From: an uncultured virus (IMG/VR IMGVR_UViG_3300008262_000171)
Lineage: Duplodnaviria > Heunggongvirae > Uroviricota > Caudoviricetes
Direction: 5' to 3' (one strand)
Length of the DNA stretch: 64,000 nucleotides
IMG/VR virus record: IMGVR_UViG_3300008262_000171
This document shows, one piece after another, positions 11,701 through 63,983 of the stretch (position 1 is its first letter; each line of letters opens with the position of its first letter). Below the pieces are notes generated by a model. The model had not been told where the DNA came from. It saw only the letters and a list, made by a program, of their open reading frames with translations, and searched no databases. The translations under genes were made by a program, and so were the position numbers.

Positions 11701-14700
11701 CGATTGCAATAGCATCAGTTGATCTTGCTTATGTTAAGTCTGGTATTGTCACTAACTTAACGACCACTGGCATTGCAACTATTAATACTGCTTCGGTTGA
11801 CTTAGCATACGTTAAGTCTGGTATCGTAACCAATTTAACCACAACTGGTATTGGTACTATCAATACTGCTTCGGTTGACTTAGCATACGTTAAGTCTGGT
11901 ATCGTAACCAATTTAACCACAACTGGTATTGGTACTATCAATACTGCATCAGTTGATCTTGCTTATGTTAACACAGGTATCGTAACCAACCTTTCCACTA
12001 GTGGAATTGCTACTATTGCTACTGCATCAGTTGACTTAGCATACGTTAAGTCTGGTATTATAACCAACTTAACTGCAAGTGGTATTGCAACTATTAATAC
12101 TGCTTCAGTTGACTTAGCATACGTTAATTCTGGTATCGTAACTAATCTGACTACAACTGGTATTGGTACGATAACCACTCTTAATGCAACCACTGGTAAT
12201 ATTGTTACTGGGGTTATAACTGATTTAAGTGGTTCTACCGCAACTTATACGACTGGTAATATTGTAACTGGTATTGTAACCAATCTAATAACTTCGGGTA
12301 TTGGTACAATTGCTACTGCTTCAGTTGATCTTGGTTATGTTAAGACTGGTATTGTAACCAATCTGACTACAACTGGTATTGCTTCGATTGCAACTGGTGT
12401 TGTCACCAATCTAATAACTTCGGGTATTGGCACTATCAATACGGCATCAATTGACTTAGCATACATTAAGTCTGGTATTGTAACCAATCTGACTACAACT
12501 GGTATTGGTACAATTGCTACTGCTTCAGTTGATCTTGGTTATGTTAAGACTGGCATTATAACCAACTTAACTACATCTGGTATTGCTACGATTGCAACTC
12601 TCAATGCTACAACTGGTAATATTGTTACTGGTTTAGTTACCACTATTTCTGGTACAACAGCAACTTATACGACTGGAAATATTGATACTCTTAATGCCAC
12701 TACTGGTAATATTGTTACTGGATTAGTTACTACTATTTCTGGTACTACTTTAAATTATAGTGGTGTTGGTACTATCACAACTTTAAATAGTACTAATTTT
12801 ATTTCTGGCATTGCTACAGCAACCACAAGACTTTCTACTGGTGCTTCTGGAGTTGGTATTAATATTACTCAGAATACTATTAGTGGTCCTTCTGAAGTTA
12901 TTATTGATCCCGCTGGTGTTGGTGATAACACTGGATCAGTAAGAATTAAAGGTGACTTATATGTTGATGGCACTACAACACAAATCAATTCCACTTCTTT
13001 AGAAATTGCTGATTTTATTGTTGGTATTGCCTCAACTGCTACTACTGATTTATTAGCAGATGGTGCTGGTATTAAAATTGGACCAAATAATACCTTATTA
13101 TATGATCATGCCAATACAGCATTAAAGTCAAGTGAGAATTTTAATCTTGCTTCTGGTAAAGTTTATGAGATTGATGGTACTAATGTTCTTTCATCTACTA
13201 CTCTTGGAAGTGGTGTTGTTAATTCTTCACTGACTTCGGTTGGAACATTAGGACAACTGAATGTTTCTGGTGTTGCCACATTCCAGAGTGATGTAAAACT
13301 TGGTGATAATAATAATCTGTATTTTGGTGATGGAAATGATTTAAGAATTGTTCATGATGGATCAAATAGTTATATTACAGATCAAGGGACTGGAAATTTA
13401 GCTATTCTTGGTGATAATGAGGTATGGATTGGAAATACTGCTGCTTCAGAGTATAAAGCAAGATTTATTACTAACGGAGCAGTGGAACTTTATTATGATG
13501 CCTCCAAGAAGTTTGAAACCACAGGATATGGTGCTACTGTCTTTGGAACCTTACAGTCACCACAACTAAATGTAACTGGTATTGTTACAGCAACAGGCGG
13601 TATTCGTGTAGGTGCTGCTGGATCTATTGGTATTGGAACCACAAATCCAACTGCACCAATTACAATTTTCTCAACAGATATTCCACAATTAAAACTAAAT
13701 GTTAGTGCTGACGGCATTAGATCTGAGGACCTGAGAACAAATAATACCAATACTTTTAATATAATTAACAAATTAAATATCACTCCTTGGCCTTCAAATA
13801 CTTATTCATTGCTGGATCTAGGAGTTGTAGATTCAAATGACTCATATACTGGTGGAATAAGGATTCATGCAGATGGAAATGTCGGTGGATCGAATAGAAC
13901 TGCTATTGTTTTAGGTGCTTTTTATACTGGGCTTAGTGAGTTAAATGCTATAACTATTCGTGGAACAGGATTAGTCGGCATTGGATCTGCAGATCCAACA
14001 TCAAAACTTGATGTTGGTGGCAATGTTAAAATTGTTGGTATCGTAACCGCATCATCTTTTGTTAAGTCTGGTGGTACCTCATCTCAGTTCTTAAAGGCAG
14101 ATGGTTCAGTTGATTCTAGCACTTATCTGACTTCTTATACTGAGACTGACACACTCAATAGTGTTACAACTAGAGGTAATGTTACCAGTAATGGTATTTC
14201 AGTAGGTTTAGTAACTGTAACTCAACTTGTCATTGGTACAGGTGTAACTCTTACTTCTGGTGGTTTAAGAATAAACTCTGGTATCGTAACGGCATCTCAA
14301 TTCGTAAGATCTGGTGGTACCTCATCTCAGTTCTTAAAGGCAGATGGTTCAGTTGATTCTAGCACTTATCTGACTTCTTATACCGAAACTGATACTCTAG
14401 ATTCTGTAACCACAAGAGGAAGAACAACTTCTAACGGTATTTCGGTTGGAGTTCTAACTGCAACATCACTTATTAAGTCTGGTGGTACCTCATCTCAGTT
14501 CTTAAAGGCAGATGGTTCAGTTGACTCTTCAACATATTCAGGACAAATTGAAGTAAGAGAAGAAGGAACTCAAATTGGTACTGCCGCAACAACATTTAAT
14601 TTTGTTGGTGCTGGAGTTACTGCTACTTATAATGCAGGTATTACAACTATCACTATTTCTGGTGGTGGAGGAGGTAGTGGTGCTCCTGGTGGATCTGATA

Positions 14701-39680: not shown

Positions 39681-40246
39681 TTTAGTTTTCGGTTCCTTTC
39701 TAACCTCCTATTGTAGAACTTCCCAATAATCCTCTTGCTTTTGAAATTTTTGATTTAATCTCAAAACAAAGATCTAAAGAAAAGAAAGTAGAATTACTTC
39801 AGAAATATAACCACGATTCAATTCGGGCTCTTTTGATTTGGAATTTTGATGAATCTATCATCACGATGCTTCCTGATGGACCAGTTCCTTATTCAAGTTA
39901 TGATGATCAGACCGTTCATAGTGGAACTCTTTCAACTAAGATTACAGAAGAGATTCGTGCCATGTATGAATCAGGTTCTTTCTCTCTAGGAGTATCTGAT
40001 ACTCAAGCAAGAACCACAATTCGTAAAGAGTTCAAGCACTTCTATCATTTTATCAAAGGTGGTAACGATAGTATGAGTGCTATTCGGCGTGAGTCAATGT
40101 TTATTAATCTTTTACAAGGTCTTCATCCTCTTGAAGCAGAAATTATTTGCCTGGTTAAAGACAAAAAACTGCAAGAAAAATATAAAATTACAAAAGAAAT
40201 TGTTTCAGAAGCATTTCCTCAAATTAGGTGGGGAGGTCGTTCATGA
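39667..40246 (+). pseudogene. Remnants of two genes joined by an apparent deletion at ~39704
   Basis: MLAVSLVFGSFLT hydrophobic start ends after 20 aa. A second frame opens right after TAA 39701-03 with no start codon: PPIVELPNNPLAFEIFDLISKQR...LLQGLHPLEAEIICLVKDK. Confidence 0.65.
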
Positions 40247-40596
40247 GTCAAGTTCGTGATGTAGTTGAAAAACCCCACAATACGGAAAAGCATATGGATT
40301 ATTGGACACCAGCAGAAAAAGAGAATTGCAAAGCACGTTATGGGTGTGATGTTCTGATTGAAAATGGTTCGTATGCTGAAGTTTGCACTAAAGAAGCACC
40401 AAATGATGCTTATATTGTCAAGTATTTTGTAGAAGAAAATATTTGTTTTGATCTCACAAGAGGTACGAGATCTAAATTGTTTGATATGTACTGGGATAAG
40501 TTTCGTGAGAATTTGAAGAGTATTGACTTTGGTTATGGTAGAATCAATCCTAAACTGTGGGGTTATCAAGCACCGAAAACCAAAAAGAGGAAGTGA
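40243..40596 (+). CDS. Hypothetical cyanophage protein
   Basis: ATGA overlap with upstream stop; LFDMYWDKF...GRINPKLWG. Confidence 0.75.
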   Translation: MSQVRDVVEKPHNTEKHMDYWTPAEKENCKARYGCDVLIENGSYAEVCTKEAPNDAYIVKYFVEENICFDLTRGTRSKLFDMYWDKFRENLKSIDFGYGRINPKLWGYQAPKTKKRK

Positions 40597-40656
40597 TTCC
40601 CCAAATAGGGGGAAATTTTTCCGGCAAAATTTTTGGTTTCTAAAGTTTTTTAAAAT

Positions 40657-40672
40657 TGTATCAGGAAATACA
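40657..40672 (+). promoter_or_regulatory. NtcA binding box
   Basis: TGTA-TCAGGAAA-TACA matches GTA-N8-TAC; candidate -10 elements TATACT 40687-92 and TATAAT 40704-09. Confidence 0.7.
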
Positions 40673-40719
40673 CACAAAACTACCTATATACTATGAATAG
40701 GGGTATAATAATCCCCTAA

Positions 40720-40972
40720 CGTTCATCCTATGACTAAAGCACTTTTGCTTTTAGCATGGGTTCCACTTCTTTCTGTTGCTTCACCACAACTTATCAAAAC
40801 TGAATATCCAGTCACAATAAGTTGTAATGCAGCGTGGGAACTAATGGACATCGTTAAAAACGACGATGTTGTTCACCAAAAGATTGAAGACCGATTGCTA
40901 TTAGAATTGCGAAAAGACGTAATTATAAAGTGCTAAAAATTAAATAGGACGGAAGTAAGCCGACTCGGAACG
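40720..40972 (+). ncRNA. Glutamine riboswitch-like aptamer 1 with an ORF in the P2 loop
   Basis: CGTTC(40720-24)/GAACG(40968-72) P1; TCCTAT(40726-31)/ATAGGA(40944-49) P2; core CGGAAGTAAGCCGAC. Confidence 0.65.
40730..40936 (+). CDS. 68-aa two-Cys peptide with a signal-peptide-like N-terminus, nested in aptamer 1
   Basis: MTKALLLLAWVPLLSVA...ISCNAAWELM...LLLELRKDVIIKC. Confidence 0.7.
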   Translation: MTKALLLLAWVPLLSVASPQLIKTEYPVTISCNAAWELMDIVKNDDVVHQKIEDRLLLELRKDVIIKC

Positions 40973-40975
40973 GAA

Positions 40976-41144
40976 CGTTCATCTATGGAAGCAATCATTT
41001 TAACTTGCTTACAGGCACAATTAATGGTTGGGAGAATTTACACAGTAGATATTCCCAAACAAGCAAAGAATGATTTAATTTGGGAGATTAAACAAGTCTC
41101 TCCAAAAACTTGTCCCATAGACGCAAAAGCCGACTGAAGGAACG
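40976..41144 (+). ncRNA. Glutamine riboswitch-like aptamer 2 (Downstream-peptide type) with an ORF in the P2 loop
   Basis: CGTTC(40976-80)/GAACG(41140-44) P1; TCTATGG(40982-88)/CCATAGA(41115-21) P2; core CGCAAAAGCCGACTGAAGGAACGC; directly upstream of a YRG peptide gene. Confidence 0.75.
40985..41137 (+). CDS. 50-aa two-Cys peptide nested in aptamer 2
   Basis: MEAIILTCLQAQLMVGRIYTVDIPKQAKNDLIWEIKQVSPKTCPIDAKAD*; the stop lies inside the aptamer core. Confidence 0.65.
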   Translation: MEAIILTCLQAQLMVGRIYTVDIPKQAKNDLIWEIKQVSPKTCPIDAKAD

Positions 41145-41176
41145 CTCTTTAGCCTCAAAATTAAGGAGAAAACCTA

Positions 41177-41335
41177 ATGTCTAAAGTCGTTTATAGAGGT
41201 TGTCAGTACGACACCGAAAATGCAAAGAAAGAGTATGTGTCATGGTATAACCAAACACACGCTCCTGCTCATCCACAAAACACATATCGTGGAGTAGCAT
41301 ACCGTCCTTGCAGAAATGCGGAGGTGCAGAAGTGA
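41177..41335 (+). CDS. DUF4278-like small protein (52 aa)
   Basis: MSKVVYRGCQYDT...NTYRGVAY, two YRG motifs; AAGGAG RBS. Confidence 0.8.
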   Translation: MSKVVYRGCQYDTENAKKEYVSWYNQTHAPAHPQNTYRGVAYRPCRNAEVQK

Positions 41336-41430
41336 AAAAACTTAACTTCCTACAACTTATTAAAGAACAAAAACAAAAAGAAGATCGTCGTCATCAAGCA
41401 CAACTAGCACAACTAGTTGGAGCAAAGTGA
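41332..41430 (+). CDS. 32-aa basic helical peptide
   Basis: GTGA overlap, GGAGGT RBS; MKKLNFLQLIKEQKQKEDRRHQAQLAQLVGAK. Confidence 0.6.
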   Translation: MKKLNFLQLIKEQKQKEDRRHQAQLAQLVGAK

Positions 41431-41516
41431 TGGTACAATTTCTAATTTCTTCAACTGCTGCAATTGCGTTAATGACGATATTGTTATCAACGTACATTCA
41501 GTGGATTTATAAGTAA
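41430..41516 (+). CDS. 28-aa single-TM peptide
   Basis: TGATG coupling; MVQFLISSTAAIALMTILLSTYIQWIYK. Confidence 0.5.
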   Translation: MVQFLISSTAAIALMTILLSTYIQWIYK

Positions 41517-41522
41517 ATTTTT

Positions 41523-41550
41523 AAGGAGGGGTTGATCCCCTCCTTTTTTT
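41523..41550 (+). terminator. Intrinsic terminator of the peptide operon
   Basis: AAGGAGGGG-TTGAT-CCCCTCCTT followed by a T-tract. Confidence 0.85.
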
Positions 41551-41581
41551 ATGATAAAATGCTTTGAGAGAATGATATCTT

Positions 41582-41758
41582 ATGGATAAAGACAAACTAA
41601 AACTCATTGTTCGTAATCTAGAACTCTTAGTTGATTCTCTCAAAGCAGAAGTGTATTCTGATGTTTCTGCATACAGTAAATATACTGAACCAGAAGTCAG
41701 AAACAGACCAATTTTAGATTACGATGAAATTTTTGAGGATTCTGATTTAGATGACTAG
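41582..41758 (+). CDS. Small hypothetical protein (58 aa)
   Basis: MDKDKLKLIVRNLELLVDSLKAEVYSD...DYDEIFED. Confidence 0.7.
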   Translation: MDKDKLKLIVRNLELLVDSLKAEVYSDVSAYSKYTEPEVRNRPILDYDEIFEDSDLDD

Positions 41759-41918
41759 TAGAGCACGAGAACTCGTGAAATTGCTTGAAAGACTTGTCAA
41801 GCAAGATCACCTTTATACTGAAGAAAGAATTGTAGAAATGAAACAACAACTGCAAGCAGTAAAGAAAGAACTTGCAGAACTGGAAGCAAAAACATCAAAA
41901 GGATTTGGAAAGAAATGA
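41751..41918 (+). CDS. Small coiled-coil hypothetical protein (55 aa)
   Basis: MTSRARELVKLLERLVKQDHLY...SKGFGKK; ATGA-coupled to thyX. Confidence 0.7.
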   Translation: MTSRARELVKLLERLVKQDHLYTEERIVEMKQQLQAVKKELAELEAKTSKGFGKK

Positions 41919-42550
41919 CAGTAAAACTCATCAGTGTGACACCCGATGCAGAAAAAACAATGGCGTATGTTGCTAGAGTTAGCAACCCTGCGAATCAAGA
42001 CAACGAAAACTATGCCAAGTTGCTTGCTTATTGTATTAAGCATAATCATTGGTCTGTTTTTGAGCAGTCTTTTATGACTCTTGAGATCGAAACAAATCGT
42101 GGCATCGCAGCACAAATTTTACGACACAGGAGTTTTACATACCAAGAATTTTCACAACGTTATGCAGATTCTTCTTTGCTAGGTGAGGAAATTCCTGTAC
42201 CAGAACTTCGTCGTCAGGACACCAAGAATCGTCAGAATTCCACTAATGATCTTCCTGAAGAACTAAAAGCAGACTTGTGGTTGAAGATCAATGACCATTT
42301 TAAGGCAGGTATGGAACTCTACAAGCAACTTCTAGATGCTGAGGTGGCAAAGGAGTGTGCAAGATTTGTATTGCCCTTGGCGACCCCCACACGCATCTAT
42401 ATGAGTGGATCATGCAGGTCATGGATACATTATATCAATCTTCGTTCTGCAAATGGAACTCAGAGAGAGCATATGGATATTGCACTTGATTGTAAGAAAG
42501 TGTTTATCGAACAATTTCCAACGGTATCAGACGCCCTTGAGTGGATCTAA
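41915..42550 (+). CDS. thyX: FAD-dependent thymidylate synthase
   Basis: HWSVFEQ; ThyX motif RHRSFTYQEFSQRY; KECARFVLP. Confidence 0.97.
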   Translation: MTVKLISVTPDAEKTMAYVARVSNPANQDNENYAKLLAYCIKHNHWSVFEQSFMTLEIETNRGIAAQILRHRSFTYQEFSQRYADSSLLGEEIPVPELRRQDTKNRQNSTNDLPEELKADLWLKINDHFKAGMELYKQLLDAEVAKECARFVLPLATPTRIYMSGSCRSWIHYINLRSANGTQREHMDIALDCKKVFIEQFPTVSDALEWI

Positions 42551-63288: not shown

Positions 63289-63360
63289 GGGAGTGTCGCC
63301 TATGGGTTAAGGCCATCGCCTTATAAGCGGTAGAACTGGGTTCAAGTCCCAGCATTCCCA
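63289..63360 (+). tRNA. tRNA-Ile(UAU)
   Basis: Acceptor GGGAGTG/CATTCCC; anticodon arm ATCGC-CTTATAA-GCGGT; T arm CTGGG-TTCAAGT-CCCAG. Confidence 0.88.
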
Positions 63361-63407: not shown

Positions 63408-63785
63408 ATGATTGGTAAGTGTTTATCTTGTGAAAAAAACTTTAAGTATATGCCGTCACAATCGACAGGTAAATACTGTTCTCGTAAATGTCAGCAAGAC
63501 AACCAAGATCGTGAATATATCACTGAATGGTTGAATGGCACAAAATCTGGTATAATAAGGGGTAATTCACTCTCTGGTTATGTTAGAAGACATTTGCTAG
63601 AAGAAGCAGGATACAAATGCTCTCAATGTAGTTGGGCAGGTGTCAATCCAGTTTCTGGAAATACAACACTAGAAATCGACCACATTGATGGTAATAGGAA
63701 GAATGCTAGTAAAGACAATCTTCGAGTATTATGCCCTAACTGTCATTCATTAACTCCTACTTATCGAGCGTTGAATATAAAATAG
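63408..63785 (+). CDS. HNH homing endonuclease within the tRNA cluster
   Basis: CLSC..KYCSRKC; CSQC; LEIDHIDGNRKN....NLRVLCPNCHS. Confidence 0.9.
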   Translation: MIGKCLSCEKNFKYMPSQSTGKYCSRKCQQDNQDREYITEWLNGTKSGIIRGNSLSGYVRRHLLEEAGYKCSQCSWAGVNPVSGNTTLEIDHIDGNRKNASKDNLRVLCPNCHSLTPTYRALNIK

Positions 63786-63857
63786 CTGGTTTAGCTCTCT
63801 GGCGAAAGCACTGCCCTCATAAGGCAAGACAGGTCGGTTCGATCCCGACAACCAGCA
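63785..63857 (+). tRNA. tRNA with CAU anticodon (elongator Met or Ile2)
   Basis: Acceptor GCTGGTT/AACCAGC; loop CTCATAA; T arm GTCGG-TTCGATC-CCGAC. Confidence 0.85.
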
Positions 63858-63899: not shown

Positions 63900-63983
63900 G
63901 GGGCGGTGACGTAACTGGTAGCCGTATCAGACTTAAAATCTGCTGGGAGTATTCCCGTGGGGGTTCGATTCCCCCTCGCCCTA
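63900..63983 (+). tRNA. tRNA-Leu(UAA)
   Basis: Loop CTTAAAA; long variable arm GGGAGTATTCCC; T arm GGGGG-TTCGATT-CCCCC. Confidence 0.9.

Follow-up and report, generated by a model that had tools for sequence, protein, structure and literature searches.

We analysed a 64,000-nucleotide stretch of DNA (hereafter the window) from an uncultured virus of the Caudoviricetes (IMG/VR record IMGVR_UViG_3300008262_000171), and within it a small operon between positions 40,657 and 41,552. The region is that of a T4-like cyanomyovirus, whose closest named records are Kyanoviridae, i.e. the freshwater or estuarine Synechococcus phages DSL-LC03, DSL-LC02, S-SRM01 and S-CREM1, and short high-identity matches are also found in the marine phages P-SSM2, P-SSM4 and S-PM2. 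Judging from sequence comparison, the operon starts with two tandem aptamers of the glnA type (RF01739-like), each split by an insert in the loop of its first hairpin. The inserts measure ~212 nucleotides (nt) in aptamer 1 and ~126 nt in aptamer 2, the halves lie 130-220 nt apart, and each insert houses an open reading frame (ORF). Our main result is this variant of the glutamine riboswitch, widespread yet so far unrecognised, whose first hairpin houses protein genes. A first-pass annotation of the window, broadly right in outline, had placed two aptamers here as compact elements between genes. Both exist, but neither is compact, since each comes in two halves around an insert, and Rfam is blank over them. 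The parts of the two aptamers and the genes that they enclose are the following, where P1a is what we take to be the label of the first internal hairpin, directly 3' of the 5' strand of P1.

40720..40731, plus strand: aptamer 1, 5' half, with the P1 strand CGUUC (40720-24) and the first-hairpin strand UCCUAU (40726-31)
40730..40936, plus strand: nested ORF1, 68 amino acids (aa), hydrophobic N-terminus, Cys32 and Cys68
40944..40977, plus strand: aptamer 1, 3' half, with AUAGGA (partner of 40726-31), the core CGGAAGUAAGCCGACUCG and the P1 strand GAACG (40968-72, or a second copy at 40973-77)
40976..40988, plus strand: aptamer 2, 5' half, with CGUUC (40976-80) and the first-hairpin strand UCUAUGG (40982-88), which contains the ATG of ORF2
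40985..41137, plus strand: nested ORF2, 50 aa, predicted two-helix hairpin, Cys8 and Cys43
41115..41145, plus strand: aptamer 2, 3' half, with CCAUAGA (partner of 40982-88), the core CGCAAAAGCCGACUGAAG and the P1 strand GAACG (41140-44)
41145..41168, plus strand: predicted hairpin of CUCUUUAG (41145-52) with UUAAGGAG (41161-68) in the minimum-energy fold, masking the Shine-Dalgarno (SD) sequence of the next gene, ORF3

Aptamer 1 thus reads CGUUCA-UCCUAU (40720-31), insert, AUAGGA-CGGAAGUAAGCCGACUCGGAACG (40944-72), and aptamer 2 reads CGUUCA-UCUAUGG (40976-88), insert, CCAUAGA-CGCAAAAGCCGACUGAAGGAACG (41115-44). The 5' half of aptamer 1 is letter-identical to that of compact aptamers in S-CREM1, DSL-LC02 and P-SSM2, which score 20-35.6 bits with RF01739, and the core of aptamer 2 is near-identical to those of the compact second aptamers of S-CREM1 (33.5 bits) and S-PM2 (33.3 bits). 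Relative to the reference core ACGGAAGUA...GAAGGAACG, aptamer 1 has ACGGAAGUAAG but CGGAACG replacing GAAGGAACG, and aptamer 2 has GAAGGAACG but ACGCAAAAG. The same deviations are present in compact relatives scoring 20.4-35.6 bits. More generally, identical alleles of the 3' half are found in compact and in insert-bearing aptamers, hence no decay is apparent in the cores. Aptamer 1 has a non-coding 3' half that is nearly invariant across 54 relatives, and the conserved block to which this half belongs (40944-40988) is 91-98% identical over ~40-47 nt in P-SSM2, P-SSM4 and other cyanophages. The P1 strands CGUUC and GAACG are present for both aptamers, and this helix is invariant, i.e. without covariation, in 54 and 33 relatives. 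The aptamers are joined by a linker (40968-40981) that reads GGAACGGAACGUUCA in the window versus GGAACGGAUCGUUCA in relatives. This gives P1 of aptamer 1 two alternative GAACG partners in the window. The second of these overlaps P1 of aptamer 2 by two bases, so that the two aptamers could compete.

The genes are interlocked with the folds. The ATG of each nested ORF sits in the 5' strand of P1a, and the last codons of ORF2 (IDAKAD and the stop) are the core of aptamer 2 itself, the stop being the UGA of GACUGAAGG. We fetched viral contigs by their similarity to the nested proteins, which gave 140 relatives through ORF2 and 248 through ORF1. The best 80 for each ORF were retained, amounting to 82 distinct loci, and in every one of these the nested ORF is flanked by CGTTCA and a 3' half. 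A contiguous stem of 3-11 base pairs (bp) joins the two halves in 54/54 distinct insert-bearing copies of aptamer 1, always as UCCUAU/AUAGGA, and in 49/49 distinct insert-bearing copies of aptamer 2. The stems of aptamer 2 are more diverse: UCUAU/AUAGA in 23 copies, UCUAUGG/CCAUAGA in 19, and six other types, among them one of 11 bp (UCUCAUGUACG/UGUGCAUGGGA) and one of 3 bp. P-SSM4 has the stems UCCUAUG/CAUAGGA and UCCUUA/UAAGGA, P-SSM2 has UCUCAU/AUGGGA, and a sample anchored on the junction between the aptamers (described below) adds UCCCAUGG, UCUUAUG, UCUCAUG and UCCAAUG. A closing hairpin is therefore kept around each insert and it covaries between lineages.

Thermodynamic predictions are largely consistent with this layout. 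The unconstrained fold of 40716-41182 has a free energy of -126.4 kcal/mol (z -5.07). It recovers P1 and P1a of aptamer 1 with pair probabilities of 0.53-0.69 (~0.68 for P1), pairing the 5' half with 40944-49 and 40973-79, and it also recovers P1a of aptamer 2 and the SD-masking hairpin, within which the SD sequence AAGGAG (41163-68) has a predicted probability of 0.01 of being unpaired. The ATG of ORF2 is predicted to fall from an accessibility of ~0.5 to 0 once the 3' strand is transcribed. Across 54 sequences of insert 1, RNAalifold returned P1, P1a and three inner helices. In this consensus 99.7% of cells are paired, versus 30-48.5% when partners are slid, and four pairs show compensatory changes, a number reached by none of 500 shuffles; the structure was derived from the same alignment on which it was scored, and most of its pairs are invariant. 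Applied to the inserts of aptamer 2, RNAalifold gave little conserved structure and mis-paired the first hairpin.

The nested ORFs are under purifying selection. ORF1 is intact in 54/54 distinct relatives, at 66-69 aa and a median dN/dS of 0.40, with indels in multiples of three inside the ORF and of other lengths past its stop. Long stretches of it are invariant even at third codon positions, so insert 1 is constrained both as RNA and as coding sequence. For ORF2 we obtained 46 distinct intact copies of 50-52 aa, with a median pairwise dN/dS of 0.11 and variable columns distributed as 20, 6 and 36 of 38 over the three codon positions. ORF1 matches no Pfam or PHROG family. ORF2 has none in Pfam and a mere hint in PHROG (phrog_504, E 0.041), and its profile retrieves 435 proteins at E<=1e-3, none with a meaningful name. 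Neither nested ORF matches a nuclease family in Pfam or PHROG. AlphaFold2 models ORF2 with helices at residues 8-20 and 25-37 (pLDDT 85.8). Two cysteines 35-38 residues apart are the pattern common to both nested families, and nothing more. Look-ups in a protein atlas gave only unnamed clusters, with scores of 0.85 or less, and no relative of ORF2 was confirmed among 185,579 prokaryote genomes, a weak negative that relies on a single peptide pattern.

We built a second sample independent of the ORFs, by scanning viral contigs for the 18-nt tandem junction, which gave at least 120 matches, from which 80 loci were fetched, 79 of them distinct. Among these matches listed, 34 loci are compact/insert (aptamer 1/aptamer 2), 19 insert/insert, 3 insert/compact and 7 compact/compact, and 16 have one or both sides unresolved. 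Inserts are thus found in aptamer 2 at 56/79 of the listed loci and in aptamer 1 at 24/79. Of these 80 inserts, 78 have an ATG that follows the C of CGUUCA by 9-11 nt, and each of the 78 holds an ORF that spans at least 85% of the insert (23/24 for aptamer 1, 55/56 for aptamer 2). Frame 0 is open in every one of them, frames +1 and +2 in not a single one, versus 3.3 expected from shuffles. Within the same listed matches, 52 of the 55 ORFs of aptamer 2 stop inside the 3' half, ending in ...DAND or ...DAKAD. The named phages show the same mosaic: aptamer 1 is compact and aptamer 2 holds an ORF in DSL-LC03, DSL-LC02, S-SRM01 and also P-SSM2, where the nested ORF is unannotated; both aptamers are compact in S-PM2; and both carry inserts in P-SSM4, where the nested ORFs correspond to the annotated genes PSSM4_169.2 and 169.3. 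As a separate observation on P-SSM4 (locus L166, 219-404), a manA RNA (RF01745, 184.1 bits) lies ~100 nt upstream of its nested-ORF glutamine operon, putting two classes of cis-regulatory RNA side by side.

Why this variant has escaped annotation is easily seen from covariance-model searches. At gathering score (35 bits for RF01739, 33 bits for RF01704) Rfam reports three tRNAs over the whole window and no glutamine riboswitch, and at E<=10 on 40500-41700 it reports no glutamine riboswitch family either. In the IMG/VR record that contains the window (G001), RF01704 has no match at E<=10; the Downstream-peptide type, which the first-pass annotation had evoked, thus finds no backing, in that record or in 40500-41700. 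Even the compact aptamers of P-SSM2 and S-PM2 score only 26.4 and 24.6 bits with RF01704, and higher with RF01739. The sole RF01739 match in the record (16.3 bits, E 0.03) corresponds to window positions 14512-14574, within an apparent coding repeat, and we judged it a chance hit. Neither of the two aptamers is found because the model cannot span inserts of 126-212 nt. The same holds elsewhere: compact aptamers of DSL-LC02, P-SSM2, DSL-LC03, S-PM2 and S-SRM01 score 24.4-35.6 bits and their insert-bearing neighbours go undetected, so that Rfam counts no glutamine riboswitch in P-SSM4 and one of two in P-SSM2. Most of the tandem aptamers that we sampled carry inserts missed by standard annotation, hence censuses of glutamine riboswitches in phages are probably large undercounts.

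Around the aptamers, the operon comprises a putative promoter region, three further peptide genes and a terminator.

40657..40672, no strand assigned: NtcA-like palindrome TGTA-N8-TACA, with the core GTA-N8-TAC at 40658-40671
40685..40692, plus strand: candidate -10 element TATATA (40685-90) or TATACT (40687-92), 13-15 nt 3' of the box
40698..40718, plus strand: hairpin UAGGGG/CCCCUA whose loop contains TATAAT (40704-09) and which stops 1 nt short of aptamer 1
41177..41335, plus strand: ORF3, 52 aa, YRG...YRG, DUF4278-like, with the SD sequence AAGGAG at 41163-68, 8 nt before the ATG
41332..41430, plus strand: ORF4, 32 aa, KKLNFLQLIKEQKQKE... peptide (KKLNFLQ...), whose GTG at 41332 overlaps the stop of ORF3; phrog_545 at 3.2e-4
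41430..41516, plus strand: ORF5, 28 aa, hydrophobic, whose ATG overlaps the stop of ORF4
41523..41552, plus strand: intrinsic terminator, a 9-bp stem (41523-41545) with 6 G-C pairs and a loop of 5, then a T run

The NtcA-like box stands where the first-pass annotation had put it. Since GTA-N8-TAC occurs 13 times in the window versus 14.08 expected, the box by itself is not beyond chance. Its conservation is: the motif is found upstream of aptamer 1 in 64/68 distinct relatives, versus a mean of 1.74 and a maximum of 7 in shuffles. The earlier annotation had made its NtcA reading depend on the box recurring in related phages, and it does recur. It had also pointed to -10-like sequences at 40687 and 40704. 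Both are there as strings, the second being the TATAAT of 40704-09, and a sigma-70 scan reported neither of them. The relatives offer some guidance. The distance from box to TATATA-like element is 13 nt in 41/68 of them, 21 nt in 12/68 and other values in the remainder. Most have a hairpin that ends 1-2 nt before the aptamer and bears a TATAAT-like loop, and those without this module (e.g. loci L004 and L002) keep box-N13-TATATA directly before the aptamer, as their sole -10 candidate. This suggests that TATATA is the -10 and that the hairpin would be part of the transcript. At least nine versions of the hairpin stem stay complementary, TAGGGG/CCCCTA, TAGAGG/CCTCTA, TAGGAG/CTCCTA and AGATC/GATCT among them. 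It is on these covarying stems that the claim of a hairpin rests, because the shuffle control is weak (a stem of 5 bp or more also forms in 38/65 shuffled sequences). The element could be a hairpin of the 5' untranslated region, a second promoter, or both.

Whether the box would repress or activate depends on its distance from the transcription start site (TSS). Its centre would lie at ~-32.5 to -34.5 if TATATA or TATACT is the -10, and at -51.5 if TATAAT is, and none of these is the canonical activating position of -41.5. The passages on NtcA boxes in two studies place activating ones at ~-41.5, overlapping the -35 region, and repressing ones near the -10 or the TSS, or scattered (PMC6212724, PMC5714215). 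Overlap with the -35 had been taken in the first-pass annotation as repressor geometry; this is reversed with respect to the corresponding passage of Klahn 2018 (PMC6212724), where such overlap is activating and proximity to the -10 or TSS is repressing. In this phage the position of the box is nevertheless more likely to fit repression than activation, as far as spacing can tell. In P-SSM4 only 6 nt separate the box from the aptamer, as would suit repression, and the 21-nt spacing class (12/68) resembles activator spacing. Further upstream, a terminator-like hairpin (TTCCCC...GGGGAA and a T run, 40597-40613) directly follows a 122-aa gene (40228-40596, phrog_485), which sets the operon apart from upstream transcription.

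The peptides downstream of the aptamers are largely as the first-pass annotation had described them. The 52-aa peptide has its two YRG motifs and its strong ribosome-binding site, the 32-aa and 28-aa peptides are coupled to it through starts that overlap the preceding stops, and the strong terminator is there, as a hairpin followed by a T run. The proposed multi-peptide operon stands as well, with five small ORFs that are all conserved, except that two of the five are encoded inside the aptamers. The expected kinship of ORF3 with DUF4278 (PF14105), a domain of the glutamine synthetase inactivating factor IF17, is only partly borne out: the match over 41177-41335 is weak (E 1.5e-4, 22.5 bits) and remains under the Pfam cut-off of 25.3 bits. 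DUF4278 is matched at E<=0.004 by 15/16 related phage peptides, among which only that of P-SSM2 passes the cut-off (29.0 bits). The sequence is thus weakly DUF4278-like and its membership is not demonstrated. ORF3 also matches phrog_5049 at 1e-11, and a search of its sequence against the PDB gave chance-level matches only (best E 0.32). Most relatives have a counterpart of ORF4 in second place; in S-CREM1 it is fused to the YRG peptide. ORF5 is kept in many, in two subtypes, and a similar peptide follows the YRG gene in P-SSM4. The SD sequence and the YRG, KKLNFLQ and hydrophobic peptides recur in relatives in several subtypes and combinations. Five loci (L024, L031, L032, L042 and L051) have an extra ORF after the hydrophobic peptide, MDYHYHWDDMDKD...YRGCKYWSCY... 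(51-55 aa), with a YRG of its own and several cysteines.

Past the terminator, a 58-aa ORF (41582-41758) matches phrog_878 at 1.2e-13, and a homologue follows the operon in S-SRM01 and S-PM2. A 211-aa ORF (41915-42550) contains RHRSFTYQEFSQRY, which we take to be the motif of ThyX, the flavin-dependent thymidylate synthase; td or thymidylate synthase genes lie just after the same operon in relatives. The three tRNA genes are at the end of the window (63289-63360, 57.8 bits; 63785-63857, 46.3 bits; 63900-63983, 46.7 bits).

How might such an operon work? We propose, with a probability of roughly 0.6, that it is best explained as a five-ORF cyanomyovirus operon led by two gene-carrying glutamine aptamers of the glnA type. 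The halves of each aptamer would close by long-range pairing into a glutamine-binding fold. NtcA, reporting 2-oxoglutarate, would set transcription, and glutamine bound to the last aptamer would free the masked SD sequence of the DUF4278-like gene, by analogy with gifB in the host. Closure of an aptamer may bury the ATG of its own nested ORF, and conversely a ribosome on the nested ORF may keep that aptamer open. Closure and translation of the nested ORF should thus exclude each other, since the closing stem contains the ATG and, in aptamer 2, the core is coding sequence of ORF2. If so, synthesis of the nested proteins and that of the downstream peptides would call for opposite glutamine states. 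On reaching the stop of ORF2 (41135-37), a ribosome might also melt the SD-masking hairpin, a possible route to ORF3 that needs no ligand. One might go further and speculate on a reciprocal switch: at low glutamine the nested two-cysteine protein would be made and ORF3 masked, at high glutamine the nested start would be closed and the ribosome-binding site of ORF3 freed, with ribosomes on the nested ORFs gating the sensing. We regard this extension as possible but tentative.

Several observations weigh against the proposed operon. The absence of any match to a glutamine-riboswitch covariance model in the window leaves family membership to manual comparison. An insert of 126-212 nt must slow the closure of the aptamer, and translation could hold it open permanently. 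P1, and among close relatives P1a, never vary, covariation being seen only between lineages. The best-predicted P1 of aptamer 1 uses GAACG at 40973-77, which overlaps P1 of aptamer 2 and leaves the latter unformed. The ATG of ORF1 is predicted to be paired already in short nascent transcripts, so that burial by the aptamer is unneeded to explain its low access. The AlphaFold2 model of ORF1 is poor (pLDDT 58), no relationship between the two nested families is demonstrated by hhalign (probability 3.3%, E 0.013), and the score of ORF3 for DUF4278 falls short of the curated one. Finally, the geometry of the NtcA box is ambiguous, with centres at ~-32.5 to -34.5 or at -51.5 and 12/68 relatives near activator spacing.

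The alternatives must be weighed with these points in mind. It is conceivable, if unlikely, that the riboswitches are disrupted, i.e. that the cassettes killed glutamine sensing, that the halves persist as signals for initiation, stop or RNA processing, and that the downstream peptides are made by ordinary translational coupling. The strongest point of this explanation is that a ribosome ending ORF2 in the core would open the SD-masking hairpin without ligand. It would also account for the silence of Rfam at the locus, for the invariance of P1 and P1a among close relatives, and for the polymorphism of the inserts, whose presence varies at a precise site with all four combinations occurring and whose compact alleles are found in RNA-library contigs of relatives. 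Yet all insert-bearing copies examined have closing stems whose strands can pair, with covariation between lineages. The 3' half of aptamer 1 hardly varies although it is non-coding, and the core alleles are those of compact aptamers, with no sign of decay. The insert forms are moreover in the majority among the matches listed (for aptamer 2), in marine and freshwater phages alike, which implies long maintenance of both halves. That the locus would instead hold two ordinary compact glutamine or Downstream-peptide aptamers between genes, each switching on the peptide gene that follows, as in the first-pass annotation, is highly improbable. This picture draws on two conserved blocks, 40944-40988 (45 nt) and 41115-41146, that lie directly upstream of ORF2 and ORF3, and on the high identity of the former in many cyanophages. 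But neither block is complete or matched by Rfam at E<=10, by RF01704 or otherwise. Aligned to compact tandems, each block is the 3' half of one aptamer, the first block also starts the next aptamer, and its own 5' partner is found at 40720-31, ahead of ORF1.

The first block invites yet another explanation, namely a circularly permuted aptamer folding locally within 40944-40988, with P1 formed by GAACG (40968-72) and CGUUC (40976-80) around a GAA loop and AUAG(G)A paired with UCUAU, to make a compact sensor before ORF2. The block is indeed contiguous and very conserved, and its strands are complementary in the window. However, the first-hairpin strands of neighbouring aptamers mismatch in P-SSM4, in P-SSM2 and in many compact/insert combinations, and match their own distant partners instead, e.g. 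UCCUUA/UAAGGA and UCUCAU/AUGGGA, or in locus L188 UUCGCUAUU upstream and UCUAUGG downstream. Compact tandems have the same junction, and there Rfam recognises two normal aptamers. Since each 5' strand matches its own distant partner and not that of the neighbour, the local fold is disfavoured, and we consider it very unlikely. One could also imagine that each insert is an autonomous element, mobile or spliced (a mini-intron or a homing cassette, for instance), whose removal from the RNA would restore a compact aptamer. The precise and polymorphic insertion site and the conserved internal helices of insert 1 would suit such elements, as would RNA-library contigs that join 40731 to 40943 and 40982 to 41121. 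These contigs come from a survey in which all 20 runs holding relatives had small shares of them (0.12 or less) and four runs were examined; in three of these four (three studies), contigs of relatives span ~40692-41449, with none at 40600-40667, and compact alleles occur at both insert sites. One contig stops at 40706, where adapter letters adjoin it. Where the two sides meet, the joined contigs have different letters (TTAAAATC and TCGCTATTTGCAAATAGCGA), and they are thus compact alleles of relatives, not splice products. Rfam at E<=10 lists neither ribozyme nor intron over 40500-41700, and the ORFs, of 50-68 aa, match no nuclease family in Pfam or PHROG. Mobile or spliced elements are the least credible of these readings, so much so that we give it almost no weight. 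We made no use of the contigs as evidence on the TSS, because they reveal neither starts and ends nor transcription.

Published work covers much of the setting in which we place the gene-carrying aptamers, namely the presence of glutamine riboswitches in T4-like cyanophages, the tandem arrangement of glnA RNAs, the link to DUF4278/IF17-like peptides and the control of gifB by NtcA. S-CREM1 has an annotated glnA riboswitch at the homologous place, where Rfam sees two compact tandem aptamers (33.5 and 20.4 bits) followed by an SD sequence and a YRG peptide gene. The window shares with the tandem glnA (RF01739) elements of S-CREM1 and S-PM2 the CGUUC/GAACG strands, the core letters, the junction and the downstream SD sequence with its YRG gene, and differs from them in the protein-coding inserts of 126-212 nt held by its first hairpins. 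Tandem glnA RNAs are described in the relevant passages of Weinberg 2010 (PMC2864571). Accession look-ups in the published glnA alignment (supplementary file 5) gave only the compact aptamers of S-PM2 and P-SSM2, with no glnA-type row for P-SSM4, and motif look-ups in it returned none of six 5' motifs typical of the nested-ORF form. In the rows examined the longest first-hairpin insert is ~50 nt, and the loop columns are wide enough for longer ones in other rows. In Synechocystis, according to the sections on gifB, this gene for a DUF4278 protein (IF17) is repressed by NtcA and preceded by a type 1 glutamine riboswitch (PMC6212724). The phage operon resembles this system in its NtcA-type box, its glnA-type aptamer and its DUF4278-like small protein, i.e. 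two readings of nitrogen on one gene in the corresponding accounts (PMC6212724, PMC5714215). It departs from it in belonging to a phage, in having two aptamers and, with the two that these enclose, five ORFs, and in the small size of its peptide, 52 aa, which stays under the DUF4278 cut-off.

Genes housed in RNA loops have other precedents. The loops of group I introns in T4-like phages house homing-endonuclease genes, and the helix still closes around the gene. In contrast, the window has neither ribozyme nor endonuclease at this place, its two-cysteine ORFs are of 50-68 aa, and their start codons are part of the helix. The nearest precedent is in Mycobacterium tuberculosis, where the relevant parts of one preprint report translated short upstream ORFs within glycine, cobalamin and YdaO aptamers and leave their interplay open (bioRxiv 10.1101/2022.06.01.494293). 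Those ORFs overlap compact aptamers, whereas the cyanophage families fill a dedicated insert of the first hairpin, at a fixed position and in most members of the lineage. A literature search, in which key papers on glutamine riboswitches were only partly covered, returned no report of genes nested in glutamine-riboswitch aptamers.

With a start codon in the stem of each aptamer, and in aptamer 2 a stop codon in the proposed ligand-binding core, translation and ligand sensing would be linked on one RNA. The reciprocal switch, if true, would be a riboswitch architecture not described before, and in the form that is the commonest among the sampled cyanomyovirus contigs (56/79 for the matches listed). 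The variant also brings to light a large unnamed family of two-cysteine phage micro-proteins, encoded beside IF17-like peptides and putatively tied to the nitrogen status of the host. Together, the nested micro-proteins and the IF17-like peptides are candidates for the means by which cyanophages tune the nitrogen metabolism of their hosts.

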